A stretch of 64,000 nt of DNA from Rhizodiscina lignyota. Lineage: Eukaryota. This document shows positions 5,114 to 54,862 of the stretch, in pieces. Each line of letters opens with the position of its first letter. Positions within the stretch are counted from its first letter, which is position 1. The notes under the pieces are model-generated. The model was given only the letters and a program-made list of their open reading frames with translations. It was not told the DNA's origin and ran no database searches. Position numbers and translations under genes: made by a program. The stretch spans positions 1,488,001-1,552,000 of the forward strand of contig ML978127.1 of the NCBI GenBank assembly GCA_010015805.1, in the 5' to 3' direction.

Positions 5114-6724
5114 TCAGATGTGCAAATTATTCATTTGCGCGGTGATCTCCCACGCCTCGTCCTCGTCGATATCCATCTTATCCCACTGTTCTTCCTCCAC
5201 CTCCGAACCCTTCATCAGACCACCGTAGTCATCTCCCTCTCGAAGCAGCTGGTTCGCAAACGGTGATCTCGCTTTGGCGGAGGCCCTCTTCGGTTTGCCA
5301 CAGAGAGTCTCGCAAATGAACTCCACGCCCCTGGAGGCAAATATTGCTCGAAAGTCGTCTTCTGCCTTGCCTGTCCACTGGATCGAAGGGTATTCGATCC
5401 CCAGATATTCGTAGCTCATGGCGCAGATACGCACGACCTTGTGCACTGTAATGCGCTTGAGGTTGTGTAAATTTGCTGCACGCCCCCAGGCCAAGTGGCA
5501 AAGAAGGTCGTTGAATCTCTGTAAGCATGTTTCGGATAGCTGTTCCTTCGTAAAGTTGCCATAAAATCGTATTGTTTCGAGGGTGGCGGGCAGGGGAACC
5601 CTGATTGGAGTGATGACGCCCGAGATCAAGATGATCCAGCCTTGATCGTGGTCGAAGATTGCAGTTGGTAGCGTTAGGTGGCGCAAACTTGACGTACTCA
5701 AGTCGAAGAAGAGTCGAGGCTGGGACAGACACGCGCTTGAGATTCGCAAGTGAAGCTCTTGGACATGACCGTGAAGCGCTGCAAGTAATTCTTCGATTCG
5801 GGACTCTATCTGCTCTGGCGGTAGTCGAGCCAGAAACCGCTTGTCAAACCTCAAATTCCACGTAATCAATCGAAGGTCTGGTGATCTGCTGAGGAATTCG
5901 TCTAGGAATTCTTCACATAAGAAGCTTTAATTCAACGTAAGAGTCGAAATGGAGAACTTGCGAGATGGCACAGACCGCGCATACTGATCAAAAACATTGT
6001 TCAGTTCCAGTTCCCGGAGGTTCTGCGATTGCAGGAGGTCAAGGAGGTAGATTTTGGTCTTCAATAAGTGAGACAGCCTGGACATGTGGAAGCCATCTTC
6101 TGAGGTGATGGAAAGCTTTGAGAGATGTGGTAAGTTGCTCAGGACCCGACCAAGTGATCCGGTATGCTGGGTGCAGTTCAGGTTATGGAATGGCGGTATG
6201 CCTAATCTGCTCCATTCACGTCCTTGACGCGTGCTGTACAGAAGCTCAAGAGACCGAAGATTTGACATACGCTCTAGTATGAGACAGGGAACAAGGTCCG
6301 AAATTAGCATCGGCCTGTAGGGAGTTGTGATGAGAAATGCGCTGTGTGCAGTAATGGCCTTCCTCACGACTTCGGTGAATTCAGGCGTCCATTGAGACCA
6401 CACTAAATCCTCCAAGACTGCGTCAAGAAATGAAATCTTGGTGGTACGCTGAGCAAGATCTGGTCGTCGTTCGACCATGGTCAACAGAGCCGCAGCTCCT
6501 CGTGATTCCCACCCCCTGACGTTGATGACTTGGAAGAGCAGTGGGTGAGCGATCCGATAGCAAGCTTGAGAAACTTGTATCAGGTGGTAAAGATCTTCCT
6601 GGACGTGGCCATCGCCCCGATTCGCAACGTCTTTGATAATCTGTTCGAGTATCTCTTCTGGTAGTTCGTAGGATGGAGGGCGGTGCACCAGTCTGAAGAG
6701 TTTCGAAGGGATGAGGAGTTGCAT
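5114..6724 (-). pseudogene. F-box-like protein gene with one in-frame TAA at 5927-5929
   Basis: LPEEILEQII...LIQVSQACYRIAHPLLF resembles an F-box. ORFs 5927-6862 and 5114-5869 share a frame and are joined by TLTLN*SFLCEEFLDEFLSRSPDLRL. Confidence 0.6.
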
Positions 6725-7013
6725 GCTCGCGAAGGACGGCTGTTGAATTTTCAGAGCGGTTGAGTTTTGGGTTCCGTTGACGTTGTAGAGAGTAGAGGCC
6801 CGTTCAAATTTGGTAGGAGGTAAGAAAGCGTGTCTGTGGGGAAGAAAATCTGAAAGAAGCATGTATGCAAAACGAATTGTAGGTGTTCGTAGCTTGCGTA
6901 GGTTTCGTAGGTGTTCGTAAATGTTGTGGGGTTATATGTTCAAAAGCCGGGTGTCAACATTAGGCGATTAAATAAATAAGGAAGGTGACTATATAATTAA
7001 TATCAGATTTAGA

Positions 7014-7735: not shown

Positions 7736-8045
7736 TCAAGTTTCTTTTGCCTTACTGCCCACAAGTTCTTCCCAAGCAATTCCCCATCTTCGCTTCAATA
7801 CTTTCGCCGTCTGCGTCGTCGTGCGGCCTTTCTCCTTCTCTTCGCGATGAATGCGGTTTGCGGCAGCTAGGACTCCAACTGAAGCAGCGAATATAGGATC
7901 GACAACCCTGGAAGATTCTCGTTAAATGCTGAATTCAATGCGATCGTGCAAGTAGATACTTGCTATTTGGGTAGCCGGAATGCACTCGGAAGAAGGGAGA
8001 GGCATTAGCTTACTTTGAAATAATGTACGCAGGCGCTGCTGACAT
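7736..8045 (-). CDS. NCE101: Non-classical export protein 1 (NCE101 family), 67 aa, 2 exons (8045-8014, 7907-7736)
   Basis: Spliced translation MSAAPAYIISKVVDPIFAASVGVLAAANRIHREEKEKGRTTTQTAKVLKRRWGIAWEELVGSKAKET*. Y-I-I-S-x-x-x-D-P-I-F-A is typical of NCE101. The intron is GTAAGC...CAG. Confidence 0.75.
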
Positions 8046-8606
8046 CGTTGGAGTAACTCAACTAAGGACGAACGGGTGTATATCGAGGGTGTCGAAGGAA
8101 TTAAACAGTATATTGCATTGCATCGAGATGGGACGAGGTTCACTGGAGCTCTCGCGCTTTGCCAAAAGTGGTAAGGAAAGTGGGACCGCTCCATCGAATC
8201 AACTTGAGGCTTCGGTCACATCACGGAAACAAGGAGTTTAGAGATGCTGGGAAAGCTGGGCTGGTTGTGAATGATGCCTTATGAAGCGATCAGAAGTGTG
8301 CTTTATGTTATGTTTGCACATGTATTTAAAATCGTGCCGTGCGAACCTTTTCACACTTCCGTCATCTAATAGGGAGTCGCTACTGGAATTAGCGCTAGCT
8401 ATGAAACGTCGTTGAAGACTCGCAAGATTCAAAATAAAGCTCGCCGATCAAGTGATCAATGTAGTTGGTGGTAGAGAGCACCCAGTTCAACTGCTCGTGG
8501 ACAAAACCTTCTTATCTAACAGCAAAGCGTGCAAGAAGATGCGAAAAGATGAAGTGAATTTTCCTCCAAATAGCAAAAGTAGATGGCGAAGCAAAATCCG
8601 AAGCCT

Positions 8607-10719
8607 TCAGTTGGTCAAAATGCCACGCACATACTCGATGTCATTCCAATCTGCCTGCCAGATATTTAGCACAGCGAGTCTCCACTCATGATCCTCCCTC
8701 TTCATCCGTGCAATGCACCTGCACAACTTCTCCTCCCCATGCATATCAAGGAATACCTTCGAGTCCTCATCCCAGAGGTCTGATCCCTTCCAAATGTCGT
8801 AAGTGCCTTTGATGCTTGGACCGCGGCGCGCCCAGATGTCTGCGAACATGAAATGCTGCTTCGAGGTATGTGCCTCTCGGTAGGAGGAAATAACGCGGGC
8901 GTACAGCTCAAGAATGACACTGTTCCCTTCTCGAATAGCTTGAGCGCCGACATTGAGAGCCTCACCGACCCGAAAGCATACGCGGAGAAGTGTACTTGGA
9001 GTCACTCCAACGATAGGAGACCTGTCTCGGATCGGCTTTGGCAAAGGAGCCCTCACAATAGGCTTGATGGGGTGATTAATGGTGTCATTCACTGATGGAG
9101 TCAACTCGCTAATATTGGTCTGTGACGAACCTTTCCGTTCTGTTAATTGAATCCGAGCGGCTGTCTCATGGTCCTTCGGTTCAAGGTGCGAGTTGATGCT
9201 AGCATCTGCGTCAATGATATCAAGAAGAACGGTTTCGTCTAAGTCAGAAAGCTCGACCCAATCATCTTCGTACAGCACATCGTCTGAAGGTCTTTCGCAA
9301 GCACCTTGAAGTAGTGATGACGGATTAGAGTCCGACTGCAGCGGTGCTGGAAGTCCTGCTACTGCATGACCGTTGACTCGCGGGGTAGCATTGTTCTCCA
9401 AGCGAGTTCCAGAACATCCCGAAGGCCCACTTGGCAATAAATCGAGGAAGTCAGTATCAGATAGATCGTCATCGCACAGGTCGAACACATCTTCGGCGCT
9501 TCCGCACCTGTCAACCCTTCCACTCTGAGAGATGTCGCTCGCCTGATGCTTGCGCTGCAGCTCGCTGTGAGTAGCATCCTTGACCCTACTCTCCTGACGC
9601 GGATAAGCATTAGTTGAATGAGCATCTTCATCAGAAACTTCATGGATTGTATCAAGATGCGGGCTTTGAGCGAGAGAAGACGTTCTGCGGTGACCAGCTG
9701 GCTTGCAATCTTCCAGGACTTCATGACCCATACGATCAGTTTGTGATTGCTTTCTTCTTGTGCTGGGCCGGCTCGTCGTGCTCGACTTCTTGGAGCGACC
9801 TTTCAGAATGATCTCTTGCTTCGGCGTGCCCATTGACAATGGTGAAGATATCAGTGGAAAGGTAAGACTGTCCATCGTTTGTGGAGCCCCATTGTAGAGC
9901 GTGTAGCCGAAACCATCACTACGCTTCAAACTGCCAACGGCAGTTGAAGGGGCAAGAACTTGGATGCGATCATCGACAGCTTCATTTGTCCTGCCGATTG
10001 AGTCGCTCCTTGTTTCGTTCGACTGATCCCCATTGTATCTGAAGCTGCGCAATTTGTTTGCTGTGGACTCGGAGAGCTTAAATGATGGTTCGGAGAATCC
10101 ACTGTCAGTAGCAATTGAAGCAGTTGTTGGCACTAACTTGCCATCATGACCAGAATCTGGGCTGACACGGGAAGCAGTTGGTTTGACGATGGGCAGTCCA
10201 TCGGATATCGACGACGCTTTCTTGCTGTTTCTTGTTTTATTCTGGCGGGTCCCAGCCTTTCGACTAGACCGTGAATTCTTTGGGGCTCCATTTGTTGTCA
10301 AATTGGGATCATCGAAATGACGGTCTGATTCATGGAAAACAGTCTCAAGTCTTGATGATTGGTCGGGTACGTTGACGTCGAGCATCAAGTACTCGGCAAC
10401 CAATTGATTTCGATGCGGAGAGCCATGGCCTTGGGCCGGCCCGAGAGACCCTGACTTGTCAAGGTTCACGTGGGAAGCGGTGTCGTTGGGTGCTTGAGCT
10501 CCGCTAGAGAGCGGGGAGTAAGAGAAAGCATTGATCGGGGTAAATGCTGAGCCAGTCGGCGCGACGCATGGCTCACTGCTCCGACTGCATGAAGCTGCGC
10601 ATTAGCTACACCTCAAAAGTACCTCATGTGCAGCTGCAGGATTTCGGAACAGAGGGTAGACACCTTCTCTTGGGGTCCGATTCCTCTAGTTCTCCGTCGG
10701 CGCTGCGCTTCGTCCGCAT
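8607..10719 (-). CDS. Uncharacterised fungal protein: long disordered N-terminus and compact C-terminal domain; start uncertain
   Basis: 620-aa ORF that stays open upstream to ~10595. C-terminal block PIVRAPLPKPIRDRSPIVG...LRVCFRVGEALN...LELYARVISS...LCRCIARMKR...WQADWNDIEYVRGI. Putative first exon MRTKRSADGELEESDPKRR at 10719. Confidence 0.7.
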
Positions 10720-24025: not shown

Positions 24026-24536
24026 ATGCACTCCTTCACTCTTACCATCCTTGCGGCTCTCGCTGCTACTGTAGTAGCAGTTGATACGATAGAGCTCACG
24101 AGTCAGAAGGGAGTGTACGTTGTTCCTTGCTTTTGCGTTGAACATATCGAGAAACTTTCAGCCTGACAGCCTCTTAGTACGCAATTAATCGACGCCGCCC
24201 TTGTCCACAACGATCAGCCTATTATTACGTCCGGTACGCAGCAGAATTGCTTCAGCTGGTTAGGTCTTGGATTCGCCGCAGACGACGGTAACGCGTTAGA
24301 TTCGGCGCAGCCAGGTATGAACTCGATAGATCATAGGGGTTTTCAATTACATCTTTGAGACTAACATCATAACAGGCATTTGCTTTGTTCTTCACGAGGG
24401 AACTGATTGCACGGGAACTGCTAGCTCCGGAGAAGGAAACGGAAGCCCACTCGATGTTCTAACTCTTAACGGTGGCCAATTCGTATCTCATACTGGTTCA
24501 ATCAAGGTGTACAGGACAGTTCATGGGAAGTGCTAG
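24026..24536 (+). CDS. Small secreted protein (~128 aa, 4 Cys), 3 exons; effector-like
   Basis: Signal peptide MHSFTLTILAALAATVVA. Introns GTACGT..CTGAC..TAG and GTATGA..CTAAC..CAG keep the frame. Ends ...GICFVLHEGTDCTG...HTGSIKVYRTVHGKC*. TATTTAA ~100 bp upstream. Confidence 0.8.
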
Positions 24537-24848: not shown

Positions 24849-26264
24849 TTAAATTAGTACAACATGCTGAGGGGTCGTATCTGGCAGTAGAGCATCAATC
24901 TACCCACCTATGAGCCCATGTACATAGCATTCACCAATGAACTCGAAGCGGTGCGCTATAACCTCTCTTGGCATGTAGAGTACCTGTCCACCAGCTAAAG
25001 CTGCAACAATATGTCAGGAGGTACCCAGAACGTCCTAGCGCGTGAGCACGTGCATTCGTGTAATTATAGAATTTCTTCTTCACAGATTTCTCTCTTCAAT
25101 CAATCCACGAGATTCACAAATTCGTGCTTGCTACGTTCCTCTCCGATACAATATCTTGGGGTCTGGTTGCAGCTGGCGCAACTGCCATGTAACCCCTGTG
25201 AGTGGCTGCCAGTCTCCGTACAAAGCACGTCTGGGAAAATGTAATGTCCATCCCATACCTTATACCCCTATCTTCAGGCGTCATCGTGTCAAGACGTTGC
25301 GGAAAAAGACTCTAGTCAATATTGCCGCCGCGACTTACATCGTTCAAATCCACGCCCTTGTGTATGTCGGCCAGTACCGTGGTGCGGAAAGCTTCGTTGT
25401 ATTTTTCAGTGTCTTTGACCATCGACGACCATCTACGAACTCCCTCTCATCCTGGCTCCTCCCGTATACTCGAGAGCTTTGCTATCCCGTCTACAAGGAT
25501 TCCACTGAGATGCAGCTCATGCTTCACGATGTGTGCGTTGCAGCGTTGAAAGGAATCTTGCATCCGGATGCGTTACAAGCATCGGCGTCTGATGGCCTAA
25601 GGCATTTCCTAAGCGGCACAACTTCAAGACGCTCTCGCTAGTCAGGTACCAAGGAAGGCATCTTTTCCTCGGCACATGCACGTTGCATGTGGCGCGATTT
25701 ATCTACAGGATGGACGACGTAGCCAAGGACGTCCAGACTTCGAGCTCTTTCCAGGTATAGAGACACAACTTCTTCATATATGTCGGTAGTAGAGCGCGAG
25801 TAATCCGGTAACGATTCGTTTGGACCAACATCCGTCGCCAGATTACGAGGAGCAAATACCTTGTCCCGTGAATCGGTACATTTCGTGGTCCGAGTCGAGT
25901 GCAGCAGTTGTATGAGGCGAGAGGCGGCGGAAAGGAATATCTTGTCGAACCAAGCATCTCCACCACAGTAACGCGTTTCTGAGGGGCCTGTTGCCTCCTG
26001 TTGAATCCAAGTGCGTGTCCAGTAGCGCTAGTTGAACATCTCCATGATCCCGCACCAGCCCTTGTACGTGTCGCTGCCAGGGAATGGAAATAGAGACGGG
26101 TCATCTGCAGACAACTCGGTAGAGCCAGCATTCATGACTAATTGGTATTGTACTAAAAGAGCTTGGCCACTAATTTTCTCACCGCCGTACGTGTGGCCTC
26201 GCGACTTCCTACCTTCTAACGTCTGTCTCTCATACCTGTCACAGACAGACCATGCTACTGTCAC
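24849..26264 (-). pseudogene. het-6-like HET protein, C-terminal part, decayed
   Basis: WCGIMEMFN*RYWTRTWIQQE (end of HET domain); KCTDSRDKVFA...PDYSRSTTDIYEE; MPSLVPD* (LPSWVPDW-like); FEFIGECYVHGL...HVVLI* terminus; several stops and frameshifts. Confidence 0.8.
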
Positions 26265-26460
26265 ACTGCCATTGCTTTAGCGGCCCTCCGCTGCTCCCTG
26301 TTGAATAACAATCTGGTTGAGACGCCGTTTTCTTACTAATGCAGGACGCTGAAAGCTCCAGGAGACGATGCTGAACTGCGAAATAACTTGTCCGTCTGTT
26401 GTGTACGATAGCTCAAGGAGGGACGTTGCCATCAAATTCAAGAGCGCCCCGTTACATTCG

Positions 26461-27540
26461 TCAATCATTTGCGGAAGGCCTCTTATGGTCTGCAGGTACG
26501 ACGACTTTTTCTTCGTAGTCTGGTTGAACGGCAAGGTCGCCGCTACGCCGCCTTCGAACCCATTCGCGTATCTTTCCAAAATCGCGGCACACGTGCGTCA
26601 CATCAGAGTCGGCAAAGTTGCGGTCCTTGGACTTGTAGTATCTTGTGCCGTAGACTGTTATGTCGCCGGTGCACATTACGTATTGGCGTATCTCGTCTAT
26701 GCAGTGATCTGTCACAACGGTTAATGAAAGATCGACACTGATGAAACTCGGCTTACTGCGGTGTCTAATAGACTCGTCTGTCGTCTCTATCCCGTAGTGC
26801 TCAGCGTGGAAGTATTGGTAGATCCTCGCCTTCACATTGTCACAGCATTAAATCTCGGGCTTCATAGTGCGCACATGGATGCTCACCAGACAGTGAAGGG
26901 TATGGAACATGCTCAACCCGACATAGTATCCTCCTTTGGCGTTGTCCCAGTGTAATTCATAATCGGATGTCCACAACGCCTTAGCTTCCTCCTCTGAGAT
27001 GAGGAAATCCCTCCCTATTCCGTAAAACATAGTCAGATGGAGCACGACGACCACACGATAGGAGCAGTTACACACCTCCAACCAATGCTAGCCAAGCCGC
27101 ATCAATCTCTGGGCTTGGCTCGCCAGTGTACGTGACGTTGCCGGGATTTGGCGTGAAGAGAGTGCCGTCTTCGTAGACCGACGGGTCTCCAGTGAATTGG
27201 ACGCCAACAATATCAATATGCTTCCTTGAATCGGCTTTCAGCTCCATTAGTCTCGCTGTCCTTTCCCCTAGTTCCAATCTACCGAGTAACTCTTACGAAG
27301 TTCAGTGCTCCATCCGGCTTCGAACGATCCATATCCATTTTGCTCGCCGACATCTCGTAGGTTGGACCAAATTAAAAAACAAATAAGCAGAGTCGTGGTC
27401 GAGGCAAAGAAAATGGTCAAAATTTTCCAAATGGGCGAGGACTTTCGGAACGATCGTTGCTCAGAAGCCAATAATGTGCTTGTCTCGGAATCCGATTCTA
27501 ATGTTGAAGCAATCTTTTCAAAATTTTCACCGGCCATCAT
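26461..27540 (-). CDS. DUF3328/UstYa-like oxidase #1 (5 exons)
   Basis: N-terminal TM anchor; YTGEPSPEIDAAW; FHTLHCL; spliced HRNHCIDEIRQYVMCTGDIT; THVCRDFGKIREW. Both HxxHC motifs are intact. Confidence 0.9.
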
Positions 27541-27960
27541 AATCGCGAATGAGTACGAAAGTAGCGTTCTTCTCGTTAAGAGGTACTATGCACACCGCCA
27601 TGATCAGAGACCTAGTTGCAGATACCTTTTGAAGCAAAGGGCATTCGCGCGAGATGCAGGTAATCGCGCAGGATTCCGCATGGCAGTATCTCCGTGCTCG
27701 CTTAGATTAAATCTCACCTCATCATGAGTCCACATTCTTAATAGCTCTAATTAGCGTTGGCGGGAACGAGATTAAAGGTTCAAAGTGCTAATCTAGTAAA
27801 ACACTCGGAAGACGGTCGACCTTCGATTACATCAGTGCTCTTGAGAACGGAGATAGCACGGAAGAAGAGATATAGAACTTGTGGATCATTGTTCTTGCTT
27901 TAGCTAATTCTTGTACTGTCAAATCGACCGAGTCGACTTCTCATAGACTTGTGCGTCAAA

Positions 27961-28785
27961 ATGCGGGAGTGGAGAAATCAGGCTAGAATTCATCGGCGTT
28001 CTCTAAGGCTTGTCATTGCTCTGCTGCTTCTTCTGCTCAGTCTGGCTACCCTGTACGCCAGGACTGTTGTAATCCCTACTCAGCGCCAGTGCCAGAACCG
28101 CATGTTCCTATATTCTCCTGCTTCAGATCATGTTCATTACCAGTGGACGAATTTCAAAAAGTTTTACTATCCGCCATCCGAGCTCGTTGGTCCTCCTACA
28201 CCTGAGCGGGAGCAGCTCTGGGACGAATATGTTCCAAGTATGTCTATGTTCTCGCCAATATATTAGAATTGTAGAACTGACGAAGATTGCAGACTCTATC
28301 GTATCGGTTCCATACGATCGAATCAGTGAACTAGGCCATGTCAATAACGAAAATTGGTGGGCTGTCGCCCCAGAAGCAGGAGGAGGCGTCGCGGCTGTGC
28401 TGGCTGTCGACTACCAGCTGAACTGCCTGGTAAGACCAGATCGAGAACTTATGTTGTTGTGCGTAGAATTAATCTGCGGTAGTCACTCCTCCACAGATAC
28501 CTATACAAGTCAGCGTACAAGCACATGTTCAACCATAGTCAAGTCTCTGAGCACCGGCTCAAGGCTCAGAAAAACCTCTGTTTGGAGGTCCTGCGACAGG
28601 AGTTGACATGCTACGCTGATCCCACATTGTATCTCAACTGGAGGAACCCGAAGTCTCAGAAGAATGCTGCGGCTGATCTTGGATCGTGGCACAAGTGCAG
28701 AGACTATGATGCAATAAGGGATTGGGCGTGGTCACACAGGATCTACAATTTGCATGTATCAAATGTATTAGACCTTACAGTGTGA
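27961..28785 (+). CDS. DUF3328/UstYa-like protein #2 with degenerate HxxHC motifs (3 exons)
   Basis: TM anchor; YSPA; GPPTPEREQLWD; VDYQLNCL; QKNLCLEVLRQELTCYADPT; HKCRDYDAIRDW. The frame is intact across GTATGT/CAG and GTAAGA/TAG introns. Confidence 0.85.
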
Positions 28786-28828
28786 GAATGTTATGAAAAT
28801 CCGTACACAAGCAGTTGAGATAAGTATA

Positions 28829-29799
28829 TCATTCTGCTGTTCCCGCGAAGTGTACAGGCAAGGTATTTTCCCTCCCATATCTCATGATATTGTCCCAGTT
28901 ACGACACTTTGCACTTTTGTTCAAGTTTAGTCTCATGTGATGCATGTCCGAATGTAGATCCCGCTCGATGAGATATGGGGTCACATCAGCGTTGCAGTGT
29001 ATAATGCTCCGTATGTTCTCAATACAGTGCTCGACATGTTCAAAGAGGACGTCCGGGGCCTGGTACCAAAACCTCCGGTCACTGAAATCGTAAGAGTCCT
29101 TGAACGTATACTGGCGGAGGAGAGACTATGTAAAAGTTTAGCATTATGATCTTGTAACCACTTGGCTTGACTTACCAAGCAATGGAGACGATGGTAGCCC
29201 TCATACAGAGCTCCTATCTTGCCTCCGTATCGTGGTTTGTCGCTGTCAAGATGCACCCACTGCACTTCGTTCGACTTGTTGAGGAGGTTAACTTTGTCAT
29301 CATCGATGCCTATGGCGCCATCTGTCTCAGGTCAGGAACAGCCCCTCATTGGATGGTGCGAATAAATGAATACAGTTCCAAAGTTCGTCCCATGCAGCCT
29401 CCACCTCGTCTGATGGAGGAGACGTATAGACGCTCTGGACTGACGGGTCGAGACTCGTCCATTCGTACTTGAAAGTTTCTATCATTGGTGCTGTTACGTA
29501 TCGGGTAAGCTGGAAATTCTGGGGATGCTGTAATGTTGAGACGGCGACTTACACCAATGGAACATCCTCGCGGTACACTTCTGATCAAGGTCGCCAGGAA
29601 GAAAGGAAAGGATGAATATGCATAGTGCTGCGACAATAAAAGCAGCTGGAGACCATGTGAAAATCATATCCAATGCATCCCGTGAATAAATTGACATGAA
29701 GGATAGGCTTTCTTGAATTCCCAAACCATGAGAGTCGAGTAGCGCCTTCTCGGAGTCGTCCGCTTCAGAGGTACTTCGTAAACGAAGATAGGGAGTCAT
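28829..29799 (-). CDS. DUF3328/UstYa-like oxidase #3 (4 exons)
   Basis: TM anchor; WSPM; SPPSDEVEAAWDELW; YHRLHCL; HVEHCIENIRSIIHCNADVTP; KCRNWDNI. Confidence 0.9.
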
Positions 29800-30377
29800 T
29801 ATGGTAGCTGCTATGTCTGTGTCTTTCGGGCTCGATAGATGACAGCGTTTTATCAAAATTCTATAGCCTATCCTCGGCGCAGTCGCTGTATACGCTAGAA
29901 ACGTCAAAAGTTAACTTGTCGTTTCAGTCTCGATGGAACCTTATCTCAAAAGAATACCTGCCCGTGCGTGATTGCTGAAGGTGTCCTATTTTATTATCAA
30001 TATCCCGATTTCCGCTAATCTCATACCTAGAGGCGTGATGACATGAGATTGATTTCCGTCGATTTCCGGAAACTCTCCCAGAACACTTTTGGTCAAGCAT
30101 TGACTCGCGCGAGAGCATCTAAAACGAGCTAAACAACTTGGTTTCCTGTCAGGATGCCCATCCTGGTACGTGAGTACGTGCATTCGAATATTATAGCCTT
30201 CCTCTCCCTCAGTGATTTCACTTTCTTGCAGTCAATCCACGATATTTGCTACTTCGTGAATCGTGCTCGCTACGTGCTCCGATATTTCCCCCTATAAGAG
30301 TTTCAATATCCAGCTGCTCTTGTCTCTACATTATACGAATCGATTATTCCGCAAGCACATCACATCCACATCTCAAG

Positions 30378-30598
30378 ATGAAGGCGTACATCACTATTAT
30401 CATTGCAGCCTTTTGCTCCATGATCGCTGCAGCGCCGGTCAGCCAGGGTACACTTCGTCTAATCTCTACAATGTAACAATTGAGCGAATACTAACCTTTA
30501 TACGAGTAGTCTCTTCCGCCGGTACTTCGGTAGCCAGTGAAAATCTTGCCATTCGCGAGGTTGTTGAAGAATACGATGGGGATGCGGAGAGCTGGTGA
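30378..30598 (+). CDS. Putative RiPP precursor peptide, 52 aa, 2 exons (30378-30447, 30510-30598)
   Basis: Spliced: MKAYITIIIAAFCSMIAAAPVSQVSSAGTSVASENLAIREVVEEYDGDAESW*. Signal peptide ends AAA-P; LxxR site; acidic Tyr/Trp C-terminal segment; CTAAC branch point; divergent from DUF3328 #3. Confidence 0.75.
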
Positions 30599-31003
30599 AG
30601 AGGAATAATAGTGACAAATACTCTTCGGAGAGAATCGTGTCACTTGAGGAACCCGTCAGAACAACTGAATCTTATGTACTAGTTCATTAGTTTGGCGAAT
30701 TCGGTGCCTCGTGTGAGAATGTGAGAGGTCTACATACTCCGTGTCTGTCTTTGTGTTGATTGCCGACGTGATCTTGAAGAAAGCGCGCTCAACGTTCAAG
30801 TACAATCGATTAAGGAAGGAGAGTCGCCAGAGGGTGGCAGAAAGGCTAATATGCTGATAGAATCAACGCGCTAACTGGTGAAATGCGAACGAACGAATTT
30901 GCCGGGTCCAACTAGTCAGATGCGTATAATTAGGCACCTCAAGAAATTGAGGTACAGGCCGCAGGAATCCGAGGTGTGTCATTATGGTTCGATGGGAATA
31001 CAT

Positions 31004-31294
31004 ACAGACAGCATCGACGTACAAGCGGTATTTAGAGCTGCGTAAGTGTCTAAACATATGGCGTAGCGCGTCGTGTAGATTCTCTTGGACTGAAAAGACT
31101 TCTCCGTTAAGTTTAATGTTGTATTTCGTATCAAGAGGACGGCCTCTCCGGTATGGTGCTGGGCCCCATGTGTAAGAAAGCGCAACGTACGTTGGCGCTT
31201 CATTGATCTCATGTGTCTCGAGGGCGAAAGCAAAGTCATCACCCTCTAAAGGACACAAAAGTCGAAACCCCCTCTGCATCAGAGCCTTGTACAT
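31004..31294 (-). pseudogene. het-6-like HET protein, N-terminal exon only
   Basis: MYKAL...FRLL...APTYVALSYTWG...VQENLHDALRH...LYVDAVC, then a GTATGT donor. No recognisable INQ/QV..M..IY continuation follows. Confidence 0.75.
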
Positions 31295-51467: not shown

Positions 51468-51477
51468 NNNNNNNNNN
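51468..51477. other. Assembly gap (10 N) followed by a poly-C run
   Basis: N run visible in the sequence. Confidence 0.99.
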
Positions 51478-52039
51478 CCCCCCCCCCGGCCCCTCCTTCG
51501 CCTCAGCGCTCCCCTGTATGTAAGCGGGTACTTCTCCTTATGAGCTTCCTTCCTTAATCAATCAACTCACATTGATCATTCGTGCTCCGTCGCTTTCTGT
51601 CTATACACTTGTTTTCAATAGAGCTTTCGCCCATTAAGACGTCTTCATCAATCTTGGTGACTCGGCTAAGAAGTTTGGCGAGACCTTCCTTCGAACCAAG
51701 GAACTGCTTCTTAGAATCGAAGAACCGTACTACTGATCGCGCGATGAGCTCCTGCAACGTCCAACCTCTTGTCACCCAGCGGCACCTTGCAATCAACGGT
51801 TCTAGCTGAGCGACAGTTATCGGAATCGGATCGGTCCTCCGCTGGAGGATTCCTTTCCAATGCCGAGAAGCCATACATCTTCGAGGTATACATAGCAATA
51901 CCTTGCTTGCTTGTACCACTCGAACATGGAGTTTATGGCTTCCGCCAACTTAACACTGCTGCTTTTGTCGATGCAAAATCCATTAACACTGACGACAACA
52001 TAGGAGTGATTAGCGCCTTCGCGTGACGTGTAATTTTCC

Positions 52040-53963: not shown

Positions 53964-54565
53964 ATGCGCCCTTTGAAGGCCCAGAACGGCGAGATTGAAG
54001 ACATCTCTAATGCCACGGAACTTGACAGCGCTCTCCAACAATGCGCTATCATATCTCATCGATGGGGTGGCGTTGAACTTACTTTCGACGAATTCACCGG
54101 ATGTATAGACTCCACTCGGAATAACAATACCAACGAAGCCGAAACGTACAAATAGCGATTCCAAAACCCTGATAAAGTTGCCTTCGATATAGAAGAAAAG
54201 GGGCTTTCGAAAGTTGCATGGGCCTCCTTGATGGCTCGACAATTTGGATACAGAGGAACGGACGTGGAGAAAGACGTGCAAGAGCATTTACATAAGGGGA
54301 AAGAGACATTCCAGTCGTTACAGTATGTCTGGTTGGATACTTGCTGCATTGATAAAAACAAAGTCATCAAGACCGACCAAGCAATCAATTCAATGTTCCG
54401 CTGGTATCAAAACGCCAAGGTCTGCTACGCCTATCTCGGCGATGTCTCCAACTACGAGTCTGAATGGCAAGAGGAGATGAGAAATGATGACGGACTCGTG
54501 CAAGCAGCAATAGGGCCCTTTGAAACAAGTGAGTGGTTTAAGCGGGGCTGGACATTGCAAGAACC
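53964..54565 (+). pseudogene. HET-domain gene, truncated, in-frame TAG at 54153
   Basis: AIISHRWGGVELTF; YVWLDTCCIDK; AINSMFRWYQNAKVCYAYLGDV; SEWFKRGWTLQE, after which similarity ends. Confidence 0.85.
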
Positions 54566-54862
54566 GCCTGCCCGTCCGAACCACTTTCCCTACTTAATCG
54601 GGCTTAGCTTCAGTTAGCGTAATCTATTACGACGCTAGTACTGAAGCGGTAGGACAGGGGATAAATACGTTTGAGAGATGAACTGCAAAAACGGGGGATA
54701 AATAACGCTAGCCGATCTGATAGACTAGATGCATTAACTAGCCCGCGCTATAATCCATCATAAGCTGATATAAAGTAAGAACAGAATGCCAGTCGTCGCT
54801 GCTGTTGTTCACACAATATCGTCAATTAGAAATTTTGAGAGAGGAATTTCAATTCAACCCAA

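Follow-up and report, generated by a model that had tools for sequence, protein, structure and literature searches.

A stretch of 64,000 nucleotides from Rhizodiscina lignyota (assembly GCA_010015805.1, contig ML978127.1, positions 1,488,001 to 1,552,000 of the forward strand; here called the window, with coordinates counted from its first letter) contains a block of about 4.7 kb (26322..31001) that holds three UstYa/DUF3328 genes, UstYa A, B and C, and a small gene (30378-30598, +) predicted to encode a 52-residue peptide from two exons. The four genes are one inserted unit which killed a HET gene, a finding that is new here and goes beyond the sequence-only reading of the small gene that preceded this analysis. 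Within this unit the small gene is the only candidate for a substrate gene. From its sequence we tentatively take the small gene to be real and its product to be a substrate of the neighbouring UstYa enzymes, a minimal single-core precursor of a dikaritin-type peptide that is made on the ribosome and then modified (RiPP); this reading falls a little short of probable. If this is correct, the peptide may be the first precursor without repeats in the UstYa enzyme family.

The insertion was recognised from five full-length HET proteins that were found with the left piece of the interrupted gene as query and mapped back to the window. All five are collinear with the minus strand, residues 1-98/104 falling at 31294-31001/30983 and residues from 106-169 onward at 26324/26111-25605, with the rest running on to 24852, and because every homologue maps around the block, the four genes between the two pieces are one inserted unit. 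The N-terminal piece of the HET gene (31002..31294, -; homologue residues 1 to about 98-104, identified by tblastn and by Pfam HET positions 1-57) ends in YVDAVC at about 31002. The reading frame resumes with LNQIVIQQ at about 26321, which places the split within the conserved IDAxCINQ motif. The remainder (24852..26321, -; homologue residues about 106/141 to 592 by tblastn) is now a pseudogene, interrupted by in-frame stops, changes of frame and a gap of 44 residues. The closest intact HET homologues are 38-45% identical, and some are named from the lichen-forming Dothideomycetes Bathelium and Trypethelium.

Both ends of the block are 3' flanks of its outward-facing end genes, the left end lying 139 bp beyond the UstYa A stop and the right end 403 bp beyond the stop of the small gene. 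The left junction is less certain, being placed by weak similarity with one of the five queries, and could be up to 160 bp further left (about 26162). No terminal inverted repeats of the block were found, and although GTCT may be duplicated at the junctions, 4 bp are too few to carry weight. The GC content of the block (45-47%, against 50-54% in the flanking housekeeping genes) is not diagnostic, as it is matched by other stretches nearby. A GTATGT at the right junction raised the possibility that the whole block lies in one giant HET intron, which was rejected as the downstream frame hits stops. The small open reading frame (ORF) was transferred together with the enzyme genes as part of one unit, which does not in itself prove that it is functional. 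Elsewhere in the window, a second HET-domain ORF lies at 54156-54614 (+; Pfam HET positions 29-146), and 2 kb from it a short fragment (51737-51975, -) is 59-67% identical to part of that ORF; the two suggest more HET gene turnover in the region.

The start codon of the small gene (30378-30380, +) has A at position -3 and is the first ATG after a TATA-like box, TATAAGA (30293-30299, +), that lies 79-85 nt 5' of it, with zero other ATGs in between. Exon 1 (30378-30447, 70 nt, +) encodes Met1 to Gln23 and the first base of codon 24. Its product, MK followed by AYITIIIAAFCSMIAAA, resembles a signal peptide by hydropathy heuristic: the N-terminal MK is succeeded by 17 hydrophobic residues and then AAA, and the mean Kyte-Doolittle value is 2.65 across the best 12 residues. 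The intron (30448-30509, 62 nt, +), predicted from sequence only, opens with GTACAC as donor, carries a perfect TACTAAC branch site that precedes the acceptor by 16 nt, and closes at its 3' end with GAGTAG. This end is a tandem NAGNAG acceptor, at which use of TAG yields 52 residues and use of the GAG three bases upstream adds one Val to give 53. Exon 2 (30510-30598, +) encodes VSSAGTSVASENLAIR, then EVVEEYDGDAESW, and closes with TGA at 30596-30598; it comprises a pro-region with a single Arg (in LAIR) and a 13-residue acidic tail that is the proposed core. The two exons fall in separate stop-to-stop frames (30216-30476 and 30260-30598). The sequence-only reading had described a spliced 52-residue peptide split over two frames of the ORF track, with an acceptor that could add one Val, and on re-reading each of these points was recovered exactly, coordinates and product included.

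The only basic residues of the peptide are K2 and R39, and there are no dibasic sites. R39 ends the tetrapeptide LAIR, which has the form of an LxxR motif, and beyond it lies a tail of 13 residues that has a net charge of -6, includes Y45 and ends with W52 at the C-terminus. The tail is present as a single copy without internal repeats, and no degenerate core copies were detected at the DNA or protein level between the stop codon and the end of the block. The earlier description of a precursor with no Lys-Arg (KR) repeats, one LxxR site and a terminal Trp is borne out by these residues. LxxR had also been put forward as a Kex2-type site of fungal secreted proteins, and the available text of PMC8528282 supports this, giving LxxR as an expanded Kex2 motif.

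Codon usage favours the spliced frame. A log-likelihood score trained on 17 long ORFs of the window was +0.166 per codon for this frame compared to -0.50 and -0.34 for the other two, a value above that of 96.3% of the window's 431 stop-free ORFs with 52-90 codons (top 3.7%), and it lies within the range of the UstYa exons (0.06-0.32). ATG codons of either strand of the window were screened for signal-peptide-like starts at a hydrophobicity cut-off placed, post hoc, just below the value of the candidate. Eight starts pass, five of which (4 distinct loci) lead to a product of 40-120 residues, so that small ORFs of this kind are rare in the 128 kb of strand sequence. Chance alone would give about 0.07 of them within the 1.2 kb x 2 strands next to UstYa C, a figure that serves as a guide only, given the post hoc threshold. 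Judged from these sequence features, the 52-residue ORF is probably a real gene.

The sequence-only reading had placed a DUF3328 triplet beside the peptide, and Pfam agrees, since seven of 38 ORF fragments near the site match UstYa (PF11807) and resolve into three adjacent genes. UstYa C (28829-29799, -; 268 residues, 4 exons) is identical to public protein P0001, which one source names after 'cyclochlorotine biosynthesis protein O', and matches PF11807 over the whole protein with 131.4 bits (cut-off 25; E 5.6e-38). UstYa A (26461-27540, -; about 305-312 residues, 4 exons, the first intron uncertain) and UstYa B (27961-28785, +; about 238 residues, 3 exons) follow splice models of this analysis, and their exon fragments match with 63.1 bits for A and with 52.7 and 39.7 bits for B, above the curated cut-off. 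Pairwise identity among the three is only 26-29%, so they are old paralogues, not recent copies. The small gene adjoins UstYa C head-to-head, the two diverging from a 578-bp spacer, and the other two UstYa genes are within 4 kb. This is the gene proximity seen in the KEP class of precursors, for which the mean distance to a DUF3328 gene is given as 3.09 genes in the available part of PMC7329392.

The two HxxHC motifs of the family form a binuclear copper site, and in the accessible text of PMC12435403 the family member CctR is a luminal, dimeric, binuclear copper oxygenase whose His/Cys-to-Ala mutants are inactive; the dimer is disulfide-linked and anchored by a transmembrane helix, with the domain in the Golgi/endosomal lumen. 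Both motifs are intact in UstYa C (YHRLHC, EHVEHC), the His and Cys of the second motif being invariant in an alignment with its 12 closest relatives, and by analogy with CctR it is predicted to be a competent enzyme. In the model of UstYa A the first motif is intact (FHTLHC) and the second lacks its first His (VTDHC), which makes activity doubtful. In the model of UstYa B both motifs are degenerate (YQLNC, QKNLC) and all four His are missing, and this protein is probably a pseudoenzyme and not a copper enzyme. As the family forms dimers, A and B may be pseudoenzyme partners. Each of the three proteins carries one N-terminal transmembrane helix with a hydrophobic stretch of about 18-22 residues. 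By comparison with CctR, their catalytic domains should face the secretory lumen, so that a substrate would have to enter the secretory pathway. No PDB relative of the UstYa alignment was found, the best match (atlastin, E 0.047) being taken as noise. A complex prediction for UstYa C (residues 75-268) with the 30-residue exon-2 product, run without controls, scored 0.00 and counts neither for nor against binding.

The relatives of UstYa C were surveyed by HMMER against 1.84 billion representatives, which gave 1155 matches with E <= 1e-3, 13 of them with E <= 1e-30; names were looked up for 10 relatives. The nearest are from the lichen-forming fungi Icmadophila ericetorum (54% identity) and Agyrium rufum (50%), and all others are at 42% or less, with proteins of Podospora, Penicillium, Thozetella and Metarhizium among those named. 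The nearest relatives of this Dothideomycete enzyme are therefore in Lecanoromycete lichens, a patchy spread that fits, and does not prove, transfer of the block.

A metagenome scan with UstYa C alone returned 96 pattern stretches and 0 relatives, and one with alignment A1 matched five stretches, of which two are relatives with identical sequence (L001 = L002). The UstYa of contig L001 is 38% identical to UstYa C and is the only relative of UstYa C whose DNA was compared. On this contig a six-unit precursor, the UstYa gene and a further ORF lie at 6615-6941 (-), 8017-9141 (+) and 9249-9980 (-). The precursor, about 1.5 kb from the UstYa gene, consists of a signal peptide, LKR and six units of DVEWTEKYVKPE(VE)AR. 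It resembles the small gene product, as predicted here, in having a signal peptide, acidic units with Trp and Tyr, and a monobasic Arg site, and its last unit also lacks a C-terminal Arg. It differs in having six tandem units and not one, in the order of the aromatic residues (W...Y, against Y...W in the small gene) and in lying beside one Pfam-recognised UstYa gene where the block has three, so that the contig does not hold a homologous triplet. The branch of the family to which UstYa C belongs is one that serves ribosomal peptides with Trp and Tyr. The cut sites also look alike, a single Arg followed by Asp-Val in L001 (R/DVEW, the slash marking the cut) and the sole Arg followed by Glu-Val in the small gene (R/EVVE), a likeness of three residues noticed post hoc that is a hint only. 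The further ORF on L001 carries HIEHC and HAHHC motifs and falls below Pfam recognition as UstYa at E <= 0.01.

In the proposed pathway, the signal peptide would take the 52-residue pre-pro-peptide into the endoplasmic reticulum and be removed by cleavage near residue 18-19. A kexin-type protease in the Golgi/endosomal lumen would then cut after the only Arg (LAIR/E), freeing EVVEEYDGDAESW; alternatively, the enzymes would act ahead of this cleavage. The lumen-facing, membrane-anchored copper enzyme UstYa C, perhaps with UstYa A, would modify the tail oxidatively, and by family analogy the modification would consist in cross-linking of side chains or in hydroxylation, at Tyr45 or close to it. 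UstYa B, which is without the four copper-binding His, would act as a non-catalytic partner if it has any role, the family enzymes being dimers. A cross-link between Tyr and Trp, as the sequence-only reading had suggested, is conjecture. The fuller proposal, in which a self-contained 4.7-kb cassette moved as a unit into the HET gene and turns the smallest dikaritin-type precursor yet proposed into a cross-linked peptide, using a complete copper enzyme, a three-His paralogue and a His-less pseudoenzyme, is doubtful when taken as a whole; the His-less paralogue may in that case be a non-catalytic dimer partner or a substrate holder. Sulfation of Tyr in the EEYDGD stretch was considered and dropped for want of support.

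The best-surviving alternative is that the small ORF is a chance frame in the promoter-side spacer of UstYa C, and that the enzymes act on a substrate encoded elsewhere, either a repeat precursor or a non-ribosomal product, or have no dedicated clustered substrate. We regard this as unlikely, although a number of observations lend it weight and tell at the same time against the small gene as precursor. The gene is absent from the public annotation, whereas UstYa C is annotated. A word-based search among public proteins of 28-91 residues found no homologue of the 52-residue product, while UstYa C was retrieved at once; tblastn of both exons against the window gave self matches only (next best E = 2.1), and a Pfam scan of the exon products gave nothing significant. 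The transcript and its splicing are predictions from sequence, and the GTACAC donor is off-consensus, without the usual G at +5. The Pro directly after AAA is unfavourable for a signal peptidase cut at that exact bond. The background statistics rest on thresholds chosen with the candidate already known, and an expectation of about 0.07 is not negligible. The weak donor is not disqualifying, because donors of neighbouring introns are off-consensus too: the public annotation of UstYa C has GTATTC, and the models made here for A and B use GTGCGC and GTAAGA.

The same alternative draws on what the enzymes are able to do. DUF3328 enzymes are known from non-ribosomal peptide synthetase (NRPS) and polyketide synthase (PKS) pathways and also act on non-ribosomal peptides and polyketides, as described in the available parts of PMC12048977 and PMC12435403, and many of them stand without a known substrate. 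A six-frame scan found no KR-separated repeat ORF in the window; this search for a repeat precursor reaches no further than the 64 kb, and the published KEP tables omit the species, the supplementary tables of PMC7329392 having no entry for Rhizodiscina lignyota. Set against a chance frame are the codon usage, with its clear preference for the spliced frame, and the TATA-like box, first-ATG position and perfect branch site. The block continues for 1.2 kb beyond the start codon of UstYa C, and its end lies 403 bp after the ORF stop, as would be expected if the ORF were a gene of the block. Core biosynthetic genes are absent from the 26 kb on one side and from the 33 kb on the other.

The chemistry and the class features raise further difficulties for the small gene as a single-core precursor. 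Among the Tyr cross-links already known, the partner often sits at i+2 (Y-x-I), according to the accessible part of PMC7329392. Here residue i+2 to Tyr45 is Gly, which has no beta-carbon, so the classical ether from Tyr to the i+2 beta-carbon is impossible and the chemistry would have to differ. Two defining features of dikaritin precursors, tandem cores and KR sites, are missing, and the loss of the metal site in UstYa B and of one His in UstYa A means that the cassette could be decaying.

These same absences, of repeats and KR hallmarks found in proven UstYa substrates and of a beta-carbon at Tyr+2, would suit a real small secreted acidic peptide or pro-peptide that is not a UstYa substrate and whose adjacency is incidental or merely co-regulatory. 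Such a peptide would show the same gene-like features (hydrophobic start, codon usage, TATA-like box, ATG and branch site), and LxxR pro-domains are common among ordinary secreted fungal proteins (available part of PMC8528282). This explanation is improbable: the small gene shares its 578-bp divergent spacer with one fully equipped enzyme gene, it travels with three enzyme genes in one 4.7-kb insert, and its 13-residue mature part is too short for a protein fold of its own. The comparison with the secreted K2PP proteins described in that source leads to the same point. They have a signal peptide, to which the signal-peptide-like start here would correspond, and likewise a short, Ser/Ala-rich, probably disordered pro-region ending in LxxR; a folded effector follows their site where the small gene has only 13 residues, and it therefore does not belong among them. 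The weakest explanation, a decaying relic of a larger cluster whose multi-core precursor has been reduced to a signal peptide and last unit, is very improbable, for although all four His are gone from UstYa B and one from A, the block sits in a pseudogene and the last L001 unit likewise lacks a C-terminal Arg, the three UstYa frames and the small ORF are all open with plausible introns, no degenerate core copies follow the stop, and the HET decay came from its interruption and is uninformative on the insert.

As a candidate precursor, the small gene is best compared with the dikaritin systems UstA/UstYa/UstYb, AprA/AprY (asperipin-2a) and PhomA/PhomYa-e (phomopsin). Like them it combines a signal sequence for the endoplasmic reticulum, here predicted, with adjacent DUF3328/UstYa genes, a Tyr in the candidate core and an Arg-specific site ahead of the core, and the enzymes share a transmembrane anchor and the HxxHC..HxxHC site (PMC7329392 and PMC12435403, in the parts available). 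An aromatic residue in the core is likewise shared, Y45 and W52 both lying in the 13-residue tail; in KEPs accompanied by DUF3328 genes, 65.6% of repeats hold Tyr (available text of PMC7329392). Dikaritins have tandem cores and use KR or Arg-Arg (RR) sites, whereas the small gene has one core and only a monobasic LxxR, and its core, unlike theirs, forms the C-terminal end of the precursor, with Trp as last residue. The block is also without the tyrosinase, methyltransferase, transporter or peptidase genes of dikaritin clusters, and one of its three UstYa paralogues has no metal-binding His. Of the layout with one acidic core proposed in the sequence-only reading, the anatomy stands (signal-peptide-like start, LxxR Arg, acidic Tyr/Trp tail) and the tandem cores and KR sites of the known class are absent. 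The small gene shows the signal-peptide-like start, UstYa adjacency and core aromatic residue of the dikaritin/KEP class and lacks its tandem cores and KR sites; it should not be filed in that class as now defined and, if real, would be a new variant. Borosins, with a C-terminal core, and the Amanita MSDIN peptides also have a single core per precursor, but they depend on unrelated enzymes (a methyltransferase and a prolyl oligopeptidase, respectively) and have no signal peptide and no DUF3328 protein. CctR and CctO of the cyclochlorotine pathway belong to the same enzyme family as the UstYa proteins here and share their motif; they tailor a non-ribosomal peptide in an NRPS cluster, and no NRPS was found in the window.

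A gene of this kind would escape current mining. KEP mining begins from annotated proteins, SignalP and tandem repeats (PMC7329392, in the text available), and, as the sequence-only reading had argued, it would miss the small gene because the ORF is neither annotated nor repetitive. UstY clusters whose genes with signal peptide and Kex2 site are without repeats are described in a 2025 survey of lichen fungi; the accessible part of the survey names a single core as one possible explanation and identifies no such precursor (PMC12048977). It also finds the families of Icmadophila and Agyrium most diverse in RiPP clusters. No proven single-core UstYa substrate is described in the open-access literature searched, and the available parts of papers on acalitide (PMC10840396) and on Trichoderma RiPP mining (PMC7099791) have no bearing on UstYa substrates. 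If the small gene is such a precursor, lichen and other fungal UstY clusters without a repeat precursor may hide unannotated single-core genes, and the pattern to search for would be an unannotated small ORF with a signal peptide, a monobasic site and an acidic aromatic tail. The compact four-gene block would then be a small and easily cloned test case for the single-core hypothesis, and as a test case it is plausible and strengthened by the finding that the block was inserted as a unit. Should the peptide not be a substrate, the block would still show cleanly a small enzyme cluster that moved as a whole into a HET gene and destroyed it.

A Pfam context scan, which took in 38 + 84 ORF fragments from across the window, covered the surroundings of the block. 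It found neither domains of an NRPS, PKS, tyrosinase, methyltransferase or peptidase, nor a transporter near the UstYa genes, from which the closest oxidoreductase-type genes are separated by more than 16 kb. Both flanks hold housekeeping genes, among them an amino-acid permease, a metallo-beta-lactamase-fold protein, a VHS-UIM-SH3 protein and a PAK-type kinase. An assembly gap of 10 N is present at 51468-51477. Outside the inserted block and just past the HET pseudogene, a likely multi-exon gene (24026-24536, +) encodes a small secreted protein that begins MHSFTLTILAALAATVVA and has neither a Pfam match nor repeats.

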